64,000 bases of DNA. It comes from Escherichia phage vB_EcoM_SA35RD. Position numbers and translations under genes: made by a program. Shown here piece by piece: positions 9,465 to 44,783 of the stretch. The stretch lies in sequence record OL960577.1. One strand, given 5' to 3'. The notes below the pieces were generated by a model. The model saw nothing but the letters and a program-made list of their open reading frames with translations, ran no database searches and had not been told where the DNA came from. The first letter of the stretch is position 1. The number at the start of each line of letters is the position of its first letter.

Positions 9465-9688
9465 TCTAGTTCCTTTGCTGCTTCAAGAGCAGCATCCAGC
9501 GAATCAAATTGGTCAACGAAATCAATATTCAACGCATCGTCAACCGTAGCATATAACCACCATTGTTTGAATTCGTATTCTAGAATAAATCCAGGACCTT
9601 CAATCTGAGGAAGACCTAGACTATTTGTACCAACTTCGTAACCAGCTAGACGCAGGTCATTAATCAAAGTTTCTGTTAATACGCTCAT
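9461..9688 (-). CDS. hypothetical protein (75 aa)
   Basis: Track ORF, stop overlaps next start. Confidence 0.45.
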   Translation of the reverse strand: MSVLTETLINDLRLAGYEVGTNSLGLPQIEGPGFILEYEFKQWWLYATVDDALNIDFVDQFDSLDAALEAAKELE

Positions 9689-10017
9689 TTTACCGCCTTA
9701 ACAATTTTAAGGTCAACGAATTTTTTCTTACGTTGATTTTTCATACGACGGATAGTCTTTTCAGAGATTTCATGTTTCTGATAAGCTTTAGATTCAACAC
9801 CAAATGCAGCAACGTCAAATTCAGAAAGAATATATTGTACTAGAATTTCACGAATAGAATTACGTCCAATTTTCTGGTCGTGTTTTTGCATGATTTCATA
9901 AAGACGGAATTCCCACGCGTCAAGAACTTGAGGAGTAACAATATTGCCGGATTCCAGAAGAGCAACAACTTTATCGAAAGCGAAAGAATTAACTACGTTT
10001 TTGATTTTAGTAGACAT
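9685..10017 (-). CDS. hypothetical protein (about 110 aa)
   Basis: Track ORF 9685..10065; start moved to ATG at 10017 with GAGGAAAATAAT RBS, downstream of early promoter. Confidence 0.45.
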   Translation of the reverse strand: MSTKIKNVVNSFAFDKVVALLESGNIVTPQVLDAWEFRLYEIMQKHDQKIGRNSIREILVQYILSEFDVAAFGVESKAYQKHEISEKTIRRMKNQRKKKFVDLKIVKAVK

Positions 10018-10054
10018 ATTATTTTCCTCGGTTATTTTATTATCCAACGAGAGA

Positions 10055-10083
10055 ATTATACTCATCTCTCAAGAGTTTGTATA
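10055..10083 (-). promoter_or_regulatory. early promoter cassette (-35 TATACA, 17 nt, -10 TATAAT) with inverted repeat GAGAGA/TCTCTC around -10
   Basis: Read directly; near-identical copy at 40640..40668. Confidence 0.5.
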
Positions 10084-10323
10084 TTATTTTTTAAGCATGA
10101 AAAGTAAGTAATTTGTATCACGTGGAGTAATATCAACACCCATATCAAAGACGCCTTTATAGATTGGGTATTTGTTTTCGGTTGTATCGAAGCTGAAACT
10201 ATTTCCATCACAACTAACAGTAATAACATCTGTTAAAATGTCATACTCAATCCTAACAATTGAATCCCCAATTTTAACGTCGAGGTGTTTTTTGAATTTG
10301 ATAAAATCTAATTCTTGGGCCAT
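10084..10323 (-). CDS. hypothetical protein (79 aa)
   Basis: Track ORF. Confidence 0.45.
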   Translation of the reverse strand: MAQELDFIKFKKHLDVKIGDSIVRIEYDILTDVITVSCDGNSFSFDTTENKYPIYKGVFDMGVDITPRDTNYLLFMLKK

Positions 10324-10386
10324 GATATTTTACTCATTTTAAGACGATAGGAAGATAATAACATGTCTTCCTATCGTTGTACATTA

Positions 10387-19575: not shown

Positions 19576-19604
19576 ATTATACTCCAACCATCCTTGGTTG
19601 TACA
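19576..19604 (-). promoter_or_regulatory. early promoter cassette (-35 TGTACA, 17 nt, -10 TATAAT), same spacer hairpin
   Basis: Near-identical 28-nt core to 18546..18575. Confidence 0.55.
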
Positions 19605-21673: not shown

Positions 21674-22675
21674 TTATTTCAGTAAAGTTACTTCAGAGAT
21701 TTCCTCCCAACCATCTTTATCAGTTGAAATAAAATCTGCTACATAAAGAGCGGTACGTAATGATACATTGCGAAGACGAGATACATTAGCCTTCATCCAG
21801 GACAATGCTTTATACGTTTCTGCATCAGTCAGACCACGTTTCTGCATCATGTCAGTAGATAATATTACATCTTCAACTCGAACCATAATCTCTTCATTAG
21901 AGTGTACTCCAAGGTCGAGATACACTGAGCGAGATACTAAAGCTTGAAGGTGTGGAGCAAGTTTCGAACCGCGTTCTAACTCTTTATCGATATCAACGTT
22001 TGTAATGAAAACGATAGTACCTTCAAACTCAAATTCTTTATCAATACCCTTATCATCGAGATAAGATGACGCAGTGCTCCAACAAACTTTGCGTTTATCA
22101 CCGGTATCTAATGCTGCTTTAAGAAGGTTCAGGATGTCCATATCTGAGAATACGTCAACGTCATCGATTAAGAGAACGCTGTCTGCATCACGGTTGAGCC
22201 AAAGTTGTTCGTAAAGGCCAATACCAGAGATTTTACCATTAATGCTTTTGTATTTGATGAAACCATTATCATTAGCATTATTAAGTGCTTTATCCAGAGA
22301 ATACGTCTTACCAATACCGGCTGCACCTGAAATAATGAGTGAACGAATTTTGCCATCGATAATGCCATTCGTCATCATGTTCATTACTTTAAAGCGTTTG
22401 TTGATACGAGTTTTCATATCTTCAGTGCTTTCAACAACTGCAACTGGTGATGTCTCAACTCCTTCCATTACGATGTCTGATTTGAAGACCCATACTCCAC
22501 GTTCAGAACCATCAATCATAACGAAAATTTTACCGTCACCTAAGTGGGAACATTCAGGATTAAGCTTTGCTGGGAACCAGGTCTTTGTGGCAACATAAGA
22601 ACCAGAGATTTCGTTATTACGATAGATACCTTTTTTGATTTGAACGTTGAACATTTTATTCTCCAATTTACTCAT
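21674..22675 (-). CDS. P-loop ATPase (Walker A/B), function unknown
   Basis: 333 aa; Walker A SGAAGIGKT, Walker B LLIDDVD. Confidence 0.6.
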   Translation of the reverse strand: MSKLENKMFNVQIKKGIYRNNEISGSYVATKTWFPAKLNPECSHLGDGKIFVMIDGSERGVWVFKSDIVMEGVETSPVAVVESTEDMKTRINKRFKVMNMMTNGIIDGKIRSLIISGAAGIGKTYSLDKALNNANDNGFIKYKSINGKISGIGLYEQLWLNRDADSVLLIDDVDVFSDMDILNLLKAALDTGDKRKVCWSTASSYLDDKGIDKEFEFEGTIVFITNVDIDKELERGSKLAPHLQALVSRSVYLDLGVHSNEEIMVRVEDVILSTDMMQKRGLTDAETYKALSWMKANVSRLRNVSLRTALYVADFISTDKDGWEEISEVTLLK

Positions 22676-25255: not shown

Positions 25256-25372
25256 CACGGGTCATTTTACCATACTCGTTTCAATAAGATTCACTATGCC
25301 GTTTACCATGTTATAAGTAAACATCGGATAATTGTATTGTACTACAACATAAGCGATAAGCAAAAGTTTCAT
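25256..25372 (-). CDS. possible small hydrophobic peptide (38 aa)
   Basis: Hand-translated MKLLLIAYVVVQYNYPMFTYNMVNGIVNLIETSMVK after promoter cassette and GGAG RBS. Confidence 0.25.
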
Positions 25373-25400
25373 TTTGTTCTCCATTTGTTTTGGTAGGATT

Positions 25401-27742: not shown

Positions 27743-27945
27743 TATTCTTCTACATGTTGTTTACGGCCTTTCTTATCAATAAAGGTATATTCAACGAATG
27801 TTCCGATGTAGTCTTTATCTACATCATGTGGACTATTAATTGGGCATTTGGTACGACAAATGCGTTCCCATTGACGAATAATTACTGCCTTATTCTTTGG
27901 GTCATATGGATGTGGATAATGTATATTCATAATAACGGTTCCCAA
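27718..27945 (-). CDS. hypothetical protein (75 aa)
   Basis: Track ORF. Confidence 0.4.
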   Translation of the reverse strand: MGTVIMNIHYPHPYDPKNKAVIIRQWERICRTKCPINSPHDVDKDYIGTFVEYTFIDKKGRKQHVEEYCLKVTWL

Positions 27946-28424
27946 TCAACAATCACAATTTCTAGTTTAGTAGAATACGTATCTAAAATCTCTTCGATGA
28001 CATCCCAGTTTCCACCACCAATACCTGCACCAATTCTTGGCATATAAATTACAGGCTTTATTATCTTATTCTTTCCGAATTCATTTAATTCTATTATACA
28101 ATTCATTAAAGCATAGTACTCAAAATTAGGTCCCGGCTCAAACTGTGTATAAAGATTAAAGCAATAAGCTTTATGGGTCTTAAAATATTTTTCATAAACC
28201 GAATAAGTCCCGAGTTTAGACTCGTCTCCGAATTCGGTTTGAAGTTTATCGGCTTCCAGAATTTTTGGATAAGCCTTTGCTAATTGTCCTGCCACACCGG
28301 CGCCCATTGTATGAAAACAATTACACCCATGAGCAATATTATTACCTTTAGAAAACAGGGCGACAATATCGCCCTTGATGTAGTTTTTAATCACTTGCTG
28401 CAAGTCCTCTATTATAAGAGTCAA
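27927..28424 (-). CDS. hypothetical protein (165 aa), possibly macro-domain-like
   Basis: NIAHGCNCFHTMGAGVAGQL loosely resembles macro-domain N-x-A...G-G-V motif; weak. Confidence 0.35.
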   Translation of the reverse strand: MTLIIEDLQQVIKNYIKGDIVALFSKGNNIAHGCNCFHTMGAGVAGQLAKAYPKILEADKLQTEFGDESKLGTYSVYEKYFKTHKAYCFNLYTQFEPGPNFEYYALMNCIIELNEFGKNKIIKPVIYMPRIGAGIGGGNWDVIEEILDTYSTKLEIVIVDWEPLL

Positions 28425-29281: not shown

Positions 29282-29740
29282 CTAGATTTTAATCACTGCT
29301 TTAGAAGCTTTTCCTGGTAGTCGTTTACTGTTAATAATAGCCATTCTACATTGAAGAGTCTTCATTTTGAATGTCGGATTTTCGCGACAAACTGTAAGTC
29401 CTAACCAAAGATTTCCGTCAGTTATTTCTAAACGGCCTGGACGATACTCGACACCTTCGACAAAATCTTCATCAACATCTGGACGTGCCGGCATTGATAA
29501 AAATTCTGCAACTTCTTTAACGTGATTTTTTACTTTATGAAATAATTCAAAAACGTAATTCTCATCTATTTCTCTCTGGATGGCACGATCTAAGAGATGT
29601 TGAGAATACTTGATATGAAAGCCTGGTAGTCCAAGAGACTTTGCAGCATCTTTTATACCGGCATTTATTTTGCGGAACTCCGTTTCAAAGATTCGACGGA
29701 GTTTATTACGACGGATAAAAACGTCTGAATTGATAGTCAT
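29282..29740 (-). CDS. regB: RegB endoribonuclease
   Basis: 152 aa; MTINSDVFIRRNKLRR...YSQHLLDRAIQREIDE...RLPGKASKAVIK matches T4 RegB. Confidence 0.85.
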   Translation of the reverse strand: MTINSDVFIRRNKLRRIFETEFRKINAGIKDAAKSLGLPGFHIKYSQHLLDRAIQREIDENYVFELFHKVKNHVKEVAEFLSMPARPDVDEDFVEGVEYRPGRLEITDGNLWLGLTVCRENPTFKMKTLQCRMAIINSKRLPGKASKAVIKI

Positions 29741-29801: not shown

Positions 29802-30017
29802 TTATTGATAAAATGGAGTTAAAGCCCAAGATTCTTTAGATACTATATTGGCGAAATGCCTCATCTCTTCGATTTGGCGACGACGTTGGTCAGCATAGTC
29901 TTCTTCGCCTTCTTCCTTACAATCTTCAAGGTCTTCTTCAAGATACTTTAAGTATTCACTACAAATTTTGTTGACCTTTTCTTGGAAGTCCAATAACCCA
30001 GTAATAGTAGAAGCCAT
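29802..30017 (-). CDS. hypothetical acidic protein (about 71 aa)
   Basis: Track ORF 29802..30059 trimmed. Confidence 0.4.
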   Translation of the reverse strand: MASTITGLLDFQEKVNKICSEYLKYLEEDLEDCKEEGEEDYADQRRRQIEEMRHFANIVSKESWALTPFYQ

Positions 30018-30283
30018 TAGTATTTTTCCTCGGGTCGAAATACTGCACGACATGCCCACATGCTGGCTTCTTTTAGATGTTGCTTAGCATACTTAAGAGC
30101 CTGCACTGCATCCATATCTTCTTTGGTTTGTTGCTCTGTTTCATTTTCTTTCAAGATATATGCTTCTTCAATCAGAGCATCAAACATCAATCCAAGACGG
30201 ACTTCTGCATCTTTAATAGCGTTCACTTTACTGATTTTATCATCGGTATGCGGTTTGTAGCCTTTGATGTCTTCAATCGACAT
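30017..30283 (-). CDS. hypothetical protein (about 88 aa)
   Basis: Track ORF 30017..30451 trimmed to MSIEDIKGYK. Confidence 0.4.
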   Translation of the reverse strand: MSIEDIKGYKPHTDDKISKVNAIKDAEVRLGLMFDALIEEAYILKENETEQQTKEDMDAVQALKYAKQHLKEASMWACRAVFRPEEKY

Positions 30284-30497
30284 AAGGAATTTCCTCATCG
30301 GTGGCAAGGTCATATTCGACCAATTGGATAGGCTCATTAATACCATATCCACGTACAGTGATATCAGTTGTCGGATAGTTTCCAGTAATATCACCCATTC
30401 TAAATGCTTCAGTGAATGATTGCTCGCCTGAGCAACTAAACCAGGCGGCAAAACATTTTAAAACATCTTCAGACCCGTCTATAATCAATTTAGCCAT
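30273..30497 (-). CDS. hypothetical protein (74 aa)
   Basis: Track ORF. Confidence 0.45.
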   Translation of the reverse strand: MAKLIIDGSEDVLKCFAAWFSCSGEQSFTEAFRMGDITGNYPTTDITVRGYGINEPIQLVEYDLATDEEIPYVD

Positions 30498-37830: not shown

Positions 37831-37860
37831 ACTATAACATAGCCCTATCTTGTTGTAAAC
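37831..37860 (-). promoter_or_regulatory. early promoter cassette (-35 GTTTAC, -10 TATAGT)
   Basis: Read directly. Confidence 0.5.
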
Positions 37861-40003: not shown

Positions 40004-40597
40004 TTATTTCAAAGAGTTAATATATTCTTGTACATCAGCAGAAGTGGTTTCGACACCTGCTGGAGTGCCATTGAACGTTTCAACCCGAGTCAGAGTGTCT
40101 TCGATATCAACCTTAGTCAGTGCAGCGATTTCAATTACATCATCGGCCGTAGAGATACCAAGGGCATTAGCTGCTCGAGTTTCACGAATGTATTCGAGTT
40201 TGATTGCCAGATTCTGACGAGCATCATCAAGTTCAACCACCTTACGAGCAATTTCAATTCGCATAGCGGCATACCCGTCAGCTTTTGTATTAAGTTGTTC
40301 GGCAGTTCGACGATACAGAAGACCAAGCTTAGCATGCATGGTAACATCTTGTCCTTCAGCCAGGAGCTTACGAATTTCACGTTCCTTAGAAGCGGCTTGC
40401 TTGTTCTTTTCAATAACAAGTTCGCGAATACGTTTTTCTTCATTAATAGATTTAACAGAAGCCGTTTTTAGTTCTTTGATTTGGGTAATCAACTTATCTG
40501 CAGCTGCGTTATACTGTTCTTCGACAGTCAGATTTTTAGCCATAGCAGTACCCAGTTTAGTGCGAATGAATTCAACAAGTTTCTTCAGTGTGTTCAT
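40004..40597 (-). CDS. hypothetical coiled-coil protein (about 197 aa)
   Basis: Track ORF 40004..40612 uses TTG; ATG at 40597 follows AGGT RBS; architecture vaguely PspA-like. Confidence 0.5.
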
Positions 40598-40639
40598 ATT
40601 ATTACCTTTCAATTGGTGGTTTATTATCCAACGAGAGCA

Positions 40640-40668
40640 TTATACTCTGCTCTCAAGAGTTTGTACAC
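40640..40668 (-). promoter_or_regulatory. early promoter cassette (-35 TGTACA, 17 nt, -10 TATAAT) with GAGAGC/GCTCTC inverted repeat
   Basis: Near-duplicate of 10055..10083 with compensatory A:T to C:G change. Confidence 0.5.
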
Positions 40669-40919
40669 TTATTTGTACGAATTAATAATCTCTTCCATTT
40701 TATCCAGAACATGGATATCGATTATACGAGGAAGTGCCGAAAGATTAGAACCGTCGAAAGATTTAAGGTCTTCCAAAATAATATTTTCAATGGCCTTTAA
40801 AGCTTCCGCAGATTCTGATGCAGAATTAAATTCAGGAATTTCTCCAAAAAGACGTAAGAATGAACCAAAGTATTCTGCGGCGATTTCTTTAGCTTGTTCG
40901 ATATCAGACTTAAACATTT
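40669..40919 (-). CDS. hypothetical acidic protein (about 83 aa)
   Basis: Track ORF 40669..40950; start set to MFKSD after GAGGAAA RBS. Confidence 0.45.
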
Positions 40920-40945
40920 TGTTTTCCTCATTTGTTGGTGGAGTA

Positions 40946-40974
40946 ATCATATCACCATCCTTGGCGTTTGTACA
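40946..40974 (-). promoter_or_regulatory. early promoter cassette (-35 TGTACA, 17 nt, -10 TATGAT) with CACCA-agga-TGG hairpin
   Basis: Read directly. Confidence 0.45.
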
Positions 40975-41202
40975 TTATTTTTTAATCAAGTTGACATAAA
41001 ATTCTGCATCTTCAGGGTGCATGCCTTCGCAGTATTCTTCAACCATGAACTTCTTAACAGCTTCATAAGGACCACTCAGATTAAGCTCAGTTGTCCAGAA
41101 CTTGGAATCTTGGACTGAATCGATATGAACTTCAGGGTGTCGGTTGCGAATAACTTCTTCGGTGTATTCATAATCAACGACATCAATACTAACTTTAGCC
41201 AT
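40975..41202 (-). CDS. hypothetical protein (75 aa)
   Basis: Track ORF. Confidence 0.45.
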   Translation of the reverse strand: MAKVSIDVVDYEYTEEVIRNRHPEVHIDSVQDSKFWTTELNLSGPYEAVKKFMVEEYCEGMHPEDAEFYVNLIKK

Positions 41203-44753: not shown

Positions 44754-44783
44754 ACTATAACATAGTCCTATCGTGTTGTAAAC
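44754..44783 (-). promoter_or_regulatory. early promoter cassette (-35 GTTTAC, -10 TATAGT) with TAGGACTA inverted repeat
   Basis: Read directly. Confidence 0.5.

Follow-up and report, generated by a model that had tools for sequence, protein, structure and literature searches.

The closest described relatives of the element reported here are the PeSL (promoter-early stem-loop) cassettes of T4-like phages, which occur as repeated copies accompanied by ORF insertions and deletions and by recombination between copies, with excision of mini-circles (Arbiol 2010, PMC2839356; Comeau 2014, PMC4122927). In RB49, the stem-loop of PeSL211/210 caused a drop in lacZ fusion expression about equal to that caused by rrnB T1 (Arbiol 2010, PMC2839356). 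The main texts of these two papers mention neither RB69-type phages nor covariation, strand asymmetry or RegB. T4-type early promoters share a GTTTAC-like -35 element and a TATAAT -10 hexamer with the sequences described below (Nolan et al. 2006, PMC1524935). A search of the text of that paper for palindrome, hairpin or symmetry found no mention of an inverted repeat around the -10 box, and its sole match to "inverted" concerns gene orientation between genomes. The third related system is the RegB/S1 site, GGA(G/U)RAYARAA, which here lies directly 3' of the cassette hairpin, whereas the published work treats the 11-nt site itself without a link to an adjoining promoter or hairpin (Durand et al. 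2006, PMC1702504).

The window, by which we mean the whole stretch of 64,000 nt analysed, belongs to an RB69-like Mosigvirus, a T4-type phage, and is 98-99% identical to many such genomes. It carries two copies of an early promoter with an inverted repeat around the -10 hexamer, and from their sequence features both copies fit the published PeSL class. As in PeSL cassettes, they are intergenic and consist of an A-rich tract with the stop codon of the preceding gene, sigma-70-like -35 and -10 elements separated by N17, a Shine-Dalgarno (SD) sequence and an ATG; they include a stem-loop, whose overlap with the -10 box is frequent in PeSL. Both copies agree with the T4/PST promoter consensus TTTACW-N17-TAYWAT. 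The promoter (by consensus only), the stem-loop and the SD and start of a PeSL are all present in each. Repetition at many loci and indels of adjoining small ORFs, also typical of PeSL, are seen in the three copies per Mosigvirus genome, in a 307-nt cassette and at ORF075c. The stems themselves are different, being GAGAG/CTCTC or GGGNNN here versus G4/C4 in RB49 and "AGNA-TCNT" in PST, and terminator activity is known only from the G/C-rich RB49 stem-loop, which is another stem type.

Architecture of the two copies

Each copy reads as a predicted sigma-70 early promoter, T(A/G)TACA, 17 bp and TATAAT, located between co-oriented genes (Table 1). The RB69 orthologues of both are HMM-predicted early promoters, Pe:42515 and Pe:72069 (Nolan et al. 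2006, PMC1524935, supplement). The first-pass annotation had described a duplicated promoter/leader cassette in front of unrelated genes. This reading holds with the qualification that the element and its genes are on the minus strand, and the downstream genes are indeed unrelated, a 55.2 homologue in one case and an e.6 homologue in the other. The near-identical segments that it reported exist, but their starts had been placed about 9 nt off, the cores covering plus-strand positions 10036-10081 and 40620-40665.

Table 1. Coordinates of the two promoter copies, the genes around them and related elements in the window
Feature	Position	Strand	Notes
Copy 1 core	10081..10036	minus	upstream of gp55.2 homologue, downstream of ORF075c homologue
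Copy 1 -35 hexamer TATACA	10078..10083	minus	sigma-70 scan TATACA-17-TATAAT, 10/12
Copy 1 5' arm GAGAGA	10065..10070	minus	spacer positions -22..-17
Copy 1 -10 hexamer TATAAT	10055..10060	minus	within 10-nt loop TGAGTATAAT (10064..10055)
Copy 1 3' arm TCTCTC	10049..10054	minus	discriminator positions -6..-1
Copy 1 predicted +1, G	10048	minus	from usual 7-nt distance past -10 hexamer
Copy 1 leader GGATAATAAAA	10035..10045	minus	putative site, RegB/S1 consensus GGA(G/U)RAYARAA, 11/11
gp55.2 homologue, served by copy 1	9685..10017	minus	SD GAGG 10026-10029, ATG at 10017
Copy 2 core	40665..40620	minus	upstream of e.6 homologue, downstream of 93-aa ORF
Copy 2 -35 hexamer TGTACA	40662..40667	minus	sigma-70 scan TGTACA-17-TATAAT, 10/12
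Copy 2 5' arm GAGAGC	40649..40654	minus	sequence read, alignment
Copy 2 -10 hexamer TATAAT	40639..40644	minus	within loop AGAGTATAAT (40648..40639)
Copy 2 3' arm GCTCTC	40633..40638	minus	sequence read, alignment
Copy 2 predicted +1, G	40632	minus	from spacing
Copy 2 leader GGATAATAAAC	40619..40629	minus	putative site, RegB/S1 consensus 10/11
e.6 homologue, served by copy 2	40004..40597	minus	ATG at 40597
Promoter core + 93-aa ORF cassette	40668..40974 (307 nt)	minus	absent from RB69 (global alignment)
Early promoter upstream of ORF075c	10324..10383	minus	hairpin ACGATAGGAAG ... CTTCCTATCGT around -10 (10360)
Early promoter hairpin GATAGGACT...AGTCCTATC	-10 at 44759	minus	promoter listing
regB, endoribonuclease gene	29282..29740	minus	Pfam REGB_T4, E=4.5e-69

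Read on the minus strand, copy 1 is ACAAACTCTT GAGAGA TGAGTATAAT TCTCTC GTTGGATAATAAA and copy 2 is ACAAACTCTT GAGAGC AGAGTATAAT GCTCTC GTTGGATAATAAA. Both 46-nt cores open with tACAAACTCTT before the 5' arm, and the common 3' end of the copies is GGATAATAAA(A/C). Local BLAST aligns them with 43 of 46 bases identical (E=1.9e-14). The innermost stem pair accounts for two of the differences, A>C and T>G, which constitute the concerted A:T to C:G swap that had been described at first pass; the third is T>A at the first loop base, where the A of copy 2 is able to pair with the last T of TATAAT. The placing of TATAAT in a 10-nt loop was likewise right for both copies. With at most 3 mismatches, a 24-nt pattern finds just these two sites in the window (0 expected, 100 shuffles), and no further copy appears in the window with up to 16 mismatches allowed. 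The third Mosigvirus copy sits upstream of an ndd-like gene, outside the window.

The ORF075c homologue upstream of copy 1 ends at 10084-10086, within the A-rich tract before the -35 box, and the 93-aa ORF upstream of copy 2 ends at 40669-40671; the stop codons thus lie either in the A-rich tract or immediately 5' of it. At the other end of the cassettes are the SD and start, GAGG...ATG at 10029-10015 in copy 1 and AAGG...ATG ending at 40595 in copy 2. Since the predicted +1 comes directly after the 3' arm, the RNA made from the cassette's own promoter should be without the hairpin. Two other promoter classes were rejected by eye: a MotA-box middle promoter, as there is no TGCTT at -30, and a late promoter (TATAAATA), as the TATAAAA in the leader belongs to the RegB motif.

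Pairing of the arms in related phages

In a BLAST search, a 61-mer matched each Mosigvirus genome at three places and, more weakly, T4, JS98, Gaprivervirus and Klebsiella phages. The relatives fetched in this way have a common frame, in which ACAAACTCTT is followed by six arm bases, NGAGTATAAT and the six bases of the opposite arm, with arms that are different yet complementary. When both flanks were fixed, an initial scan of IMG/VR found just 3 identical copy 2 orthologues, while arm-agnostic scans of IMG/VR and JGI metagenomes, in which only non-arm bases were fixed, gave 97 unique matches. Family members were recognised by GGA(G/T) 2-3 nt past the arm, so that the arm sequences had no part in the choice. 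The family so defined consists of 34 distinct sequences from Mosigvirus, Tequatrovirus, Dhakavirus, Gaprivervirus and Klebsiella phages (Marfavirus and related), with stems of 6-8 bp and loops of 8-10 nt.

In an alignment of these as 34 distinct 39-mers, none of the 204 cells of the six core pairs is unpaired, and 5 of the 6 pairs have changed on both sides. There are at least 14 arm variants, among them GAGAGA/TCTCTC, GAGAGC/GCTCTC, AGGAGC/GCTCCT, GAGGAC/GTCCTC, GGGACC/GGTCCC, GGGAGT/ACTCCC and GGGGTC/GACCCC, plus wobble intermediates. Slid-register controls show only 36-49% pairing, and unrelated matches to the same anchor (n=44) have a mean of 2.3 of 6 pairs, with all 6 in none. The first-pass annotation had claimed from the single swap that pairing between the arms is under selection, and had set covariation among homologous cassettes as the check beforehand, naming uncompensated changes in homologues as what would refute it. 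The covariation score is 0.542 versus 0.261 in shuffles, of which 0 of 500 reach the observed value; all 34 distinct sequences keep 6/6 core pairs through compensatory changes, and uncompensated changes were found in none of them. Selection on hairpin pairing is thus well supported by sequence comparison, because covariation is seen in this wider set; the two copies of the window alone would be insufficient as proof. An outer stem, UCU/GGA, is invariant on both sides across the alignment and thus shows no covariation.

The core cells of the family that are not Watson-Crick are all G·T or T·G on the sense strand, with no sense A·C. A sense G·T is an A·C on the opposite strand. Among promoter hairpins more broadly, those with one internal mismatch have G·T and A·C at a ratio of 6:1. 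The arm pairs AGGAGC/GCTCCT, GGGAGC/GCTCCT and GGGAGC/GCTCCC are all present, and this series suggests wobble intermediates along the compensatory path. The restriction to G·T mismatches, together with a stem of 6-8 bp and a loop of 8-10 nt, favours an RNA hairpin over a cruciform or a dyad-symmetric protein site, and most likely the hairpin forms only in RNA reading through from upstream. Part of the asymmetry could come from a C>T mutation bias on the sense strand rather than from selection at the RNA level.

The predicted RNA hairpin of copy 1 (-8.5 kcal/mol, z -1.2) is thermodynamically unremarkable alone; that of copy 2 is at -13 kcal/mol (z -3.0), and relatives and neighbouring promoters fold down to about -16 kcal/mol. 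Rho-independent terminators also have a stem-loop at the end of the upstream gene that forms in the sense RNA, but the present element differs from them in its 8-10 nt loop, in the weak stem of copy 1 and in the absence of a U-tract after the hairpin at both copies (GUUGGAUAAUAAAA; tail GUUGGAUAAUAAA). Terminator scans found no terminator-like site at either copy. The missing U-tract and the negative scans make canonical intrinsic termination unlikely. The reading as an intrinsic terminator was rejected on the sense strand from the scans and on the antisense strand from the wobble asymmetry. A search of Rfam gave no credible match, the best reaching 16.8 bits versus a gathering score of 80.

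The leader motif, exchange between copies and neighbouring promoters

Both leaders contain putative RegB/S1 target sites, identified by their match to the consensus in a phage that encodes regB. Across the family the consensus is matched at 8-11 of 11 positions, and the linker between stem and GGA is constant at 2-3 nt in all members. The window holds 5 occurrences of the 11-nt RegB motif versus 1.1 expected, including SD-type sites at 22654-22664 and 25372-25382. The T4 member of the family, upstream of motB, carries GGAGUAUAAAA, which is the motif of the motB RNA, a model RegB substrate (Durand et al. 2006, PMC1702504). The same study reports only two T4 intergenic GGAU sites that are cut, one of which is before 55.2 (Durand et al. 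2006, PMC1702504), and the sequence upstream of 55.2 in T4 contains the 11-mer GGATAATAAAA, identical to that of copy 1. No promoter is present upstream of T4 55.2, where the gap between 55.3 and 55.2 is 13 nt and only GGATAATAAAA is in common. The text of Durand 2006 (PMC1702504) gives no sequence for the natural motB 5' end. Two further minus-strand genes were noted. One, adjoining tk/regB at 27927-28424, encodes a 165-aa Macro-domain protein; the other, at 30017-30451, encodes a 144-aa protein with an Acb2/Tad1 hairpin domain (E=3e-17), which from this domain match is possibly an anti-CBASS or anti-Thoeris sponge.

The 307-nt cassette of promoter core and 93-aa ORF is inserted, relative to RB69, between frd.3 and e.6. 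Its edges are direct repeats of TGTACAAAC, which comprises the -35 box and the first spacer bases; these repeats belong to the promoter with its -10 at 40951..40946 and to copy 2. An 801-nt query spanning 40300-41100 is covered to at least 80% in just 6 of 536 matching phage records. ORF075c lies between two hairpin promoters, and the ORF075c-plus-promoter cassette is absent from T4. GAGAG arms are common to the three Mosigvirus copies (55.2, e.6 and ndd-like), while the arms of the Tequatrovirus e.6 orthologue (phage slur03) are GGGAGT/ACTCCC. Copies are thus closer to one another within a genome than to orthologues of another genus, a comparative trace that is expected under exchange by recombination. 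Near positions 2085-2095 of the phage ATK47 record (L001), inside the ORF075c homologue, the depositor annotates both a "potential repressor-binding site (OL2)" and a "direct repeat sequence1, possible binding site of StbAB". Both annotations look like pattern matches.

Many early promoters of the window bear differing inverted repeats around the -10 box. When the spacers of 19 early promoters were paired with their own post-(-10) segments, the summed stem length was 106, compared to 79±4.9 for permuted spacer pairing, and 106 was reached by 0 of 20,000 permutations; pairing of a spacer is thus better with its own segment than with those of other promoters, which marks the inverted repeat as a feature of the class. 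The promoter upstream of ORF075c has an RNA hairpin with a dG of -16.7 kcal/mol (z -4.4). It belongs to a second, larger subfamily on the minus strand, with -10 boxes at 10360, 21223, 25406, 36272, 37836 and 44759, whose hairpin is (G)ATAGGACT-atgtTATAGT-AGTCCTAT(C), then CAAAAC, with an RNA dG of about -16.6 kcal/mol and z about -4. The member at 37836 has one sense-strand G·T pair. The promoters with -10 at 19581 and 18561 have an identical 17-nt spacer, accaaggatggttggag, and a related spacer is found at 40951; these three are a further duplicated promoter subfamily, without an obvious hairpin. At other hairpin promoters, for example those with -10 at 10360, 44759 and 37836, there is no RegB motif after the stem, which indicates that the role of the hairpin is not bound to RegB in general.

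Proposed role of the hairpin

We think it likely that the two copies are compact PeSL-type early-gene cassettes with overlaid signals, in which the hairpin exists in read-through RNA and the copies are homogenised by recombination. In this proposal the cassette would span the gap of ~65 nt between two co-oriented early genes. Its DNA layer would be a strong T4-type sigma-70 early promoter with an A-rich upstream tract, T(T/G/A)TACA, 17 bp and TATAAT, and the arms would occupy the two least constrained segments of that promoter, the spacer from -22 to -17 and the discriminator from -6 to -1. Because these segments are complementary, read-through RNA is expected to fold with the -10 box in the loop, while the cassette's own transcript would begin just past the 3' arm and lack the hairpin. 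The putative RegB/S1 motif, GGA(G/U)AAUAAAA, would follow 2-3 nt past the hairpin, and then the SD and ATG. The most likely role of the hairpin would be to insulate the message upstream against the unit downstream. It could attenuate read-through, as measured for an RB49 PeSL stem-loop, or it could cap the upstream mRNA at its 3' end once this has been processed; its role in read-through RNA may be attenuation, 3' capping or RegB gating. Near-identity at a distance of 30 kb would reflect spread of the cassette and homogenisation by homologous recombination between promoter sequences, and the same recombination would shuffle small ORFs in T4-like genomes.

Read in this manner, two codes would share about 45 nt, with loosely read spacer and discriminator bases that also encode an RNA hairpin. 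The covariation data are the first evidence, from comparison and not from experiment, that selection keeps the arms of PeSL stem-loops paired and probably acts on the RNA, and they connect one PeSL subfamily with the RegB decay pathway. In practice, the cassettes mark recombination joints for swaps of small accessory ORFs, which helps in annotating and engineering T4-like therapeutic phages.

An alternative gives the neighbouring RegB site a larger part. A cut by RegB/S1 at 2-3 nt plus GG past the stem would leave the upstream message with a 3'-terminal hairpin that protects against 3' exonucleases, or else the outer stem (UCU/GGA; ACUC/GAGU in T4) would mask the site so that only promoter-initiated RNA is cut. 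The constant 2-3 nt linker between stem and GGA and the 8-11/11 consensus match in all family members agree with this, as do the experimental cutting of the motB and 55.2 sites, the inhibition of RegB by secondary structure, the presence of regB in the window and the placement of GGA in the outer stem by RNAfold. Against it, the outer stem is short and invariant, and the hairpin promoters at 10360, 44759 and 37836 lack the motif after the stem, and on balance we regard joint action with RegB as rather unlikely. A related and similarly doubtful proposal is a three-layer switch by which the cassette distinguishes its own transcripts from read-through transcripts, the covarying stem being an undescribed mRNA-processing module and not a terminator. 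Promoter-initiated RNA, starting 3 nt before the RegB/S1 site, would then be rapidly decapped by RegB, and the hairpin 5' of the site would gate RegB or yield a protected 3' end of the upstream message.

We hold the two remaining explanations to be very improbable. A DNA-level element, either a dyad operator for a dimeric phage or host protein over the -10 box or a cruciform with an effect on the opening of the promoter, would account for an inverted repeat that exactly brackets the -10 hexamer, the classical position of an operator. The half-sites of such an operator are not conserved, however: at least 14 arm sequences occur at fixed geometry with complementarity alone being kept, which argues against sequence-specific recognition and led us to reject the dyad-symmetric operator. 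G·T on one strand only is an asymmetry that a duplex-symmetric element should not tolerate, and extrusion of a cruciform is disfavoured with arms of 6-8 bp and loops of 8-10 nt. Complementarity might instead arise by mutation, through templated correction of a quasi-palindrome (strand switching in a hairpin at replication), with recombination spreading the variants. In favour of such a process, two transversions are needed to go from C:G to A:T between the copies and no wobble state lies between them; recombination is very frequent in T4-type phages, and exchange among the cassettes is clear. It leaves unexplained, though, the constant length and position of the stem in every genus, the persistence of G·T without A·C in many lineages, and the differing hairpins at the same place in unrelated promoters of one genome, and we give it no more weight than the operator or cruciform.

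The metagenome scans gave two further observations. IMG/VR contig 2706795394 (L035) carries two family cassettes, at 402-428 and 814-840, about 410 nt apart, with different arms (GGGAGC/GTTCCC vs GGGGTC/GACCCC); presumably just one small ORF lies between them, which would be the mini-circle configuration of PeSL. Ten unrelated contigs (L055, L063, L073, L077, L079, L089, L111, L127, L130 and L137) have in common TTTACAAACTC-N9-GGAGTATAAT followed by GCCAGCC-NNNN-GGCTGGC-ATTTATTG, in which the 4-nt loop varies, and this looks like a separate recurring promoter with a leader hairpin.
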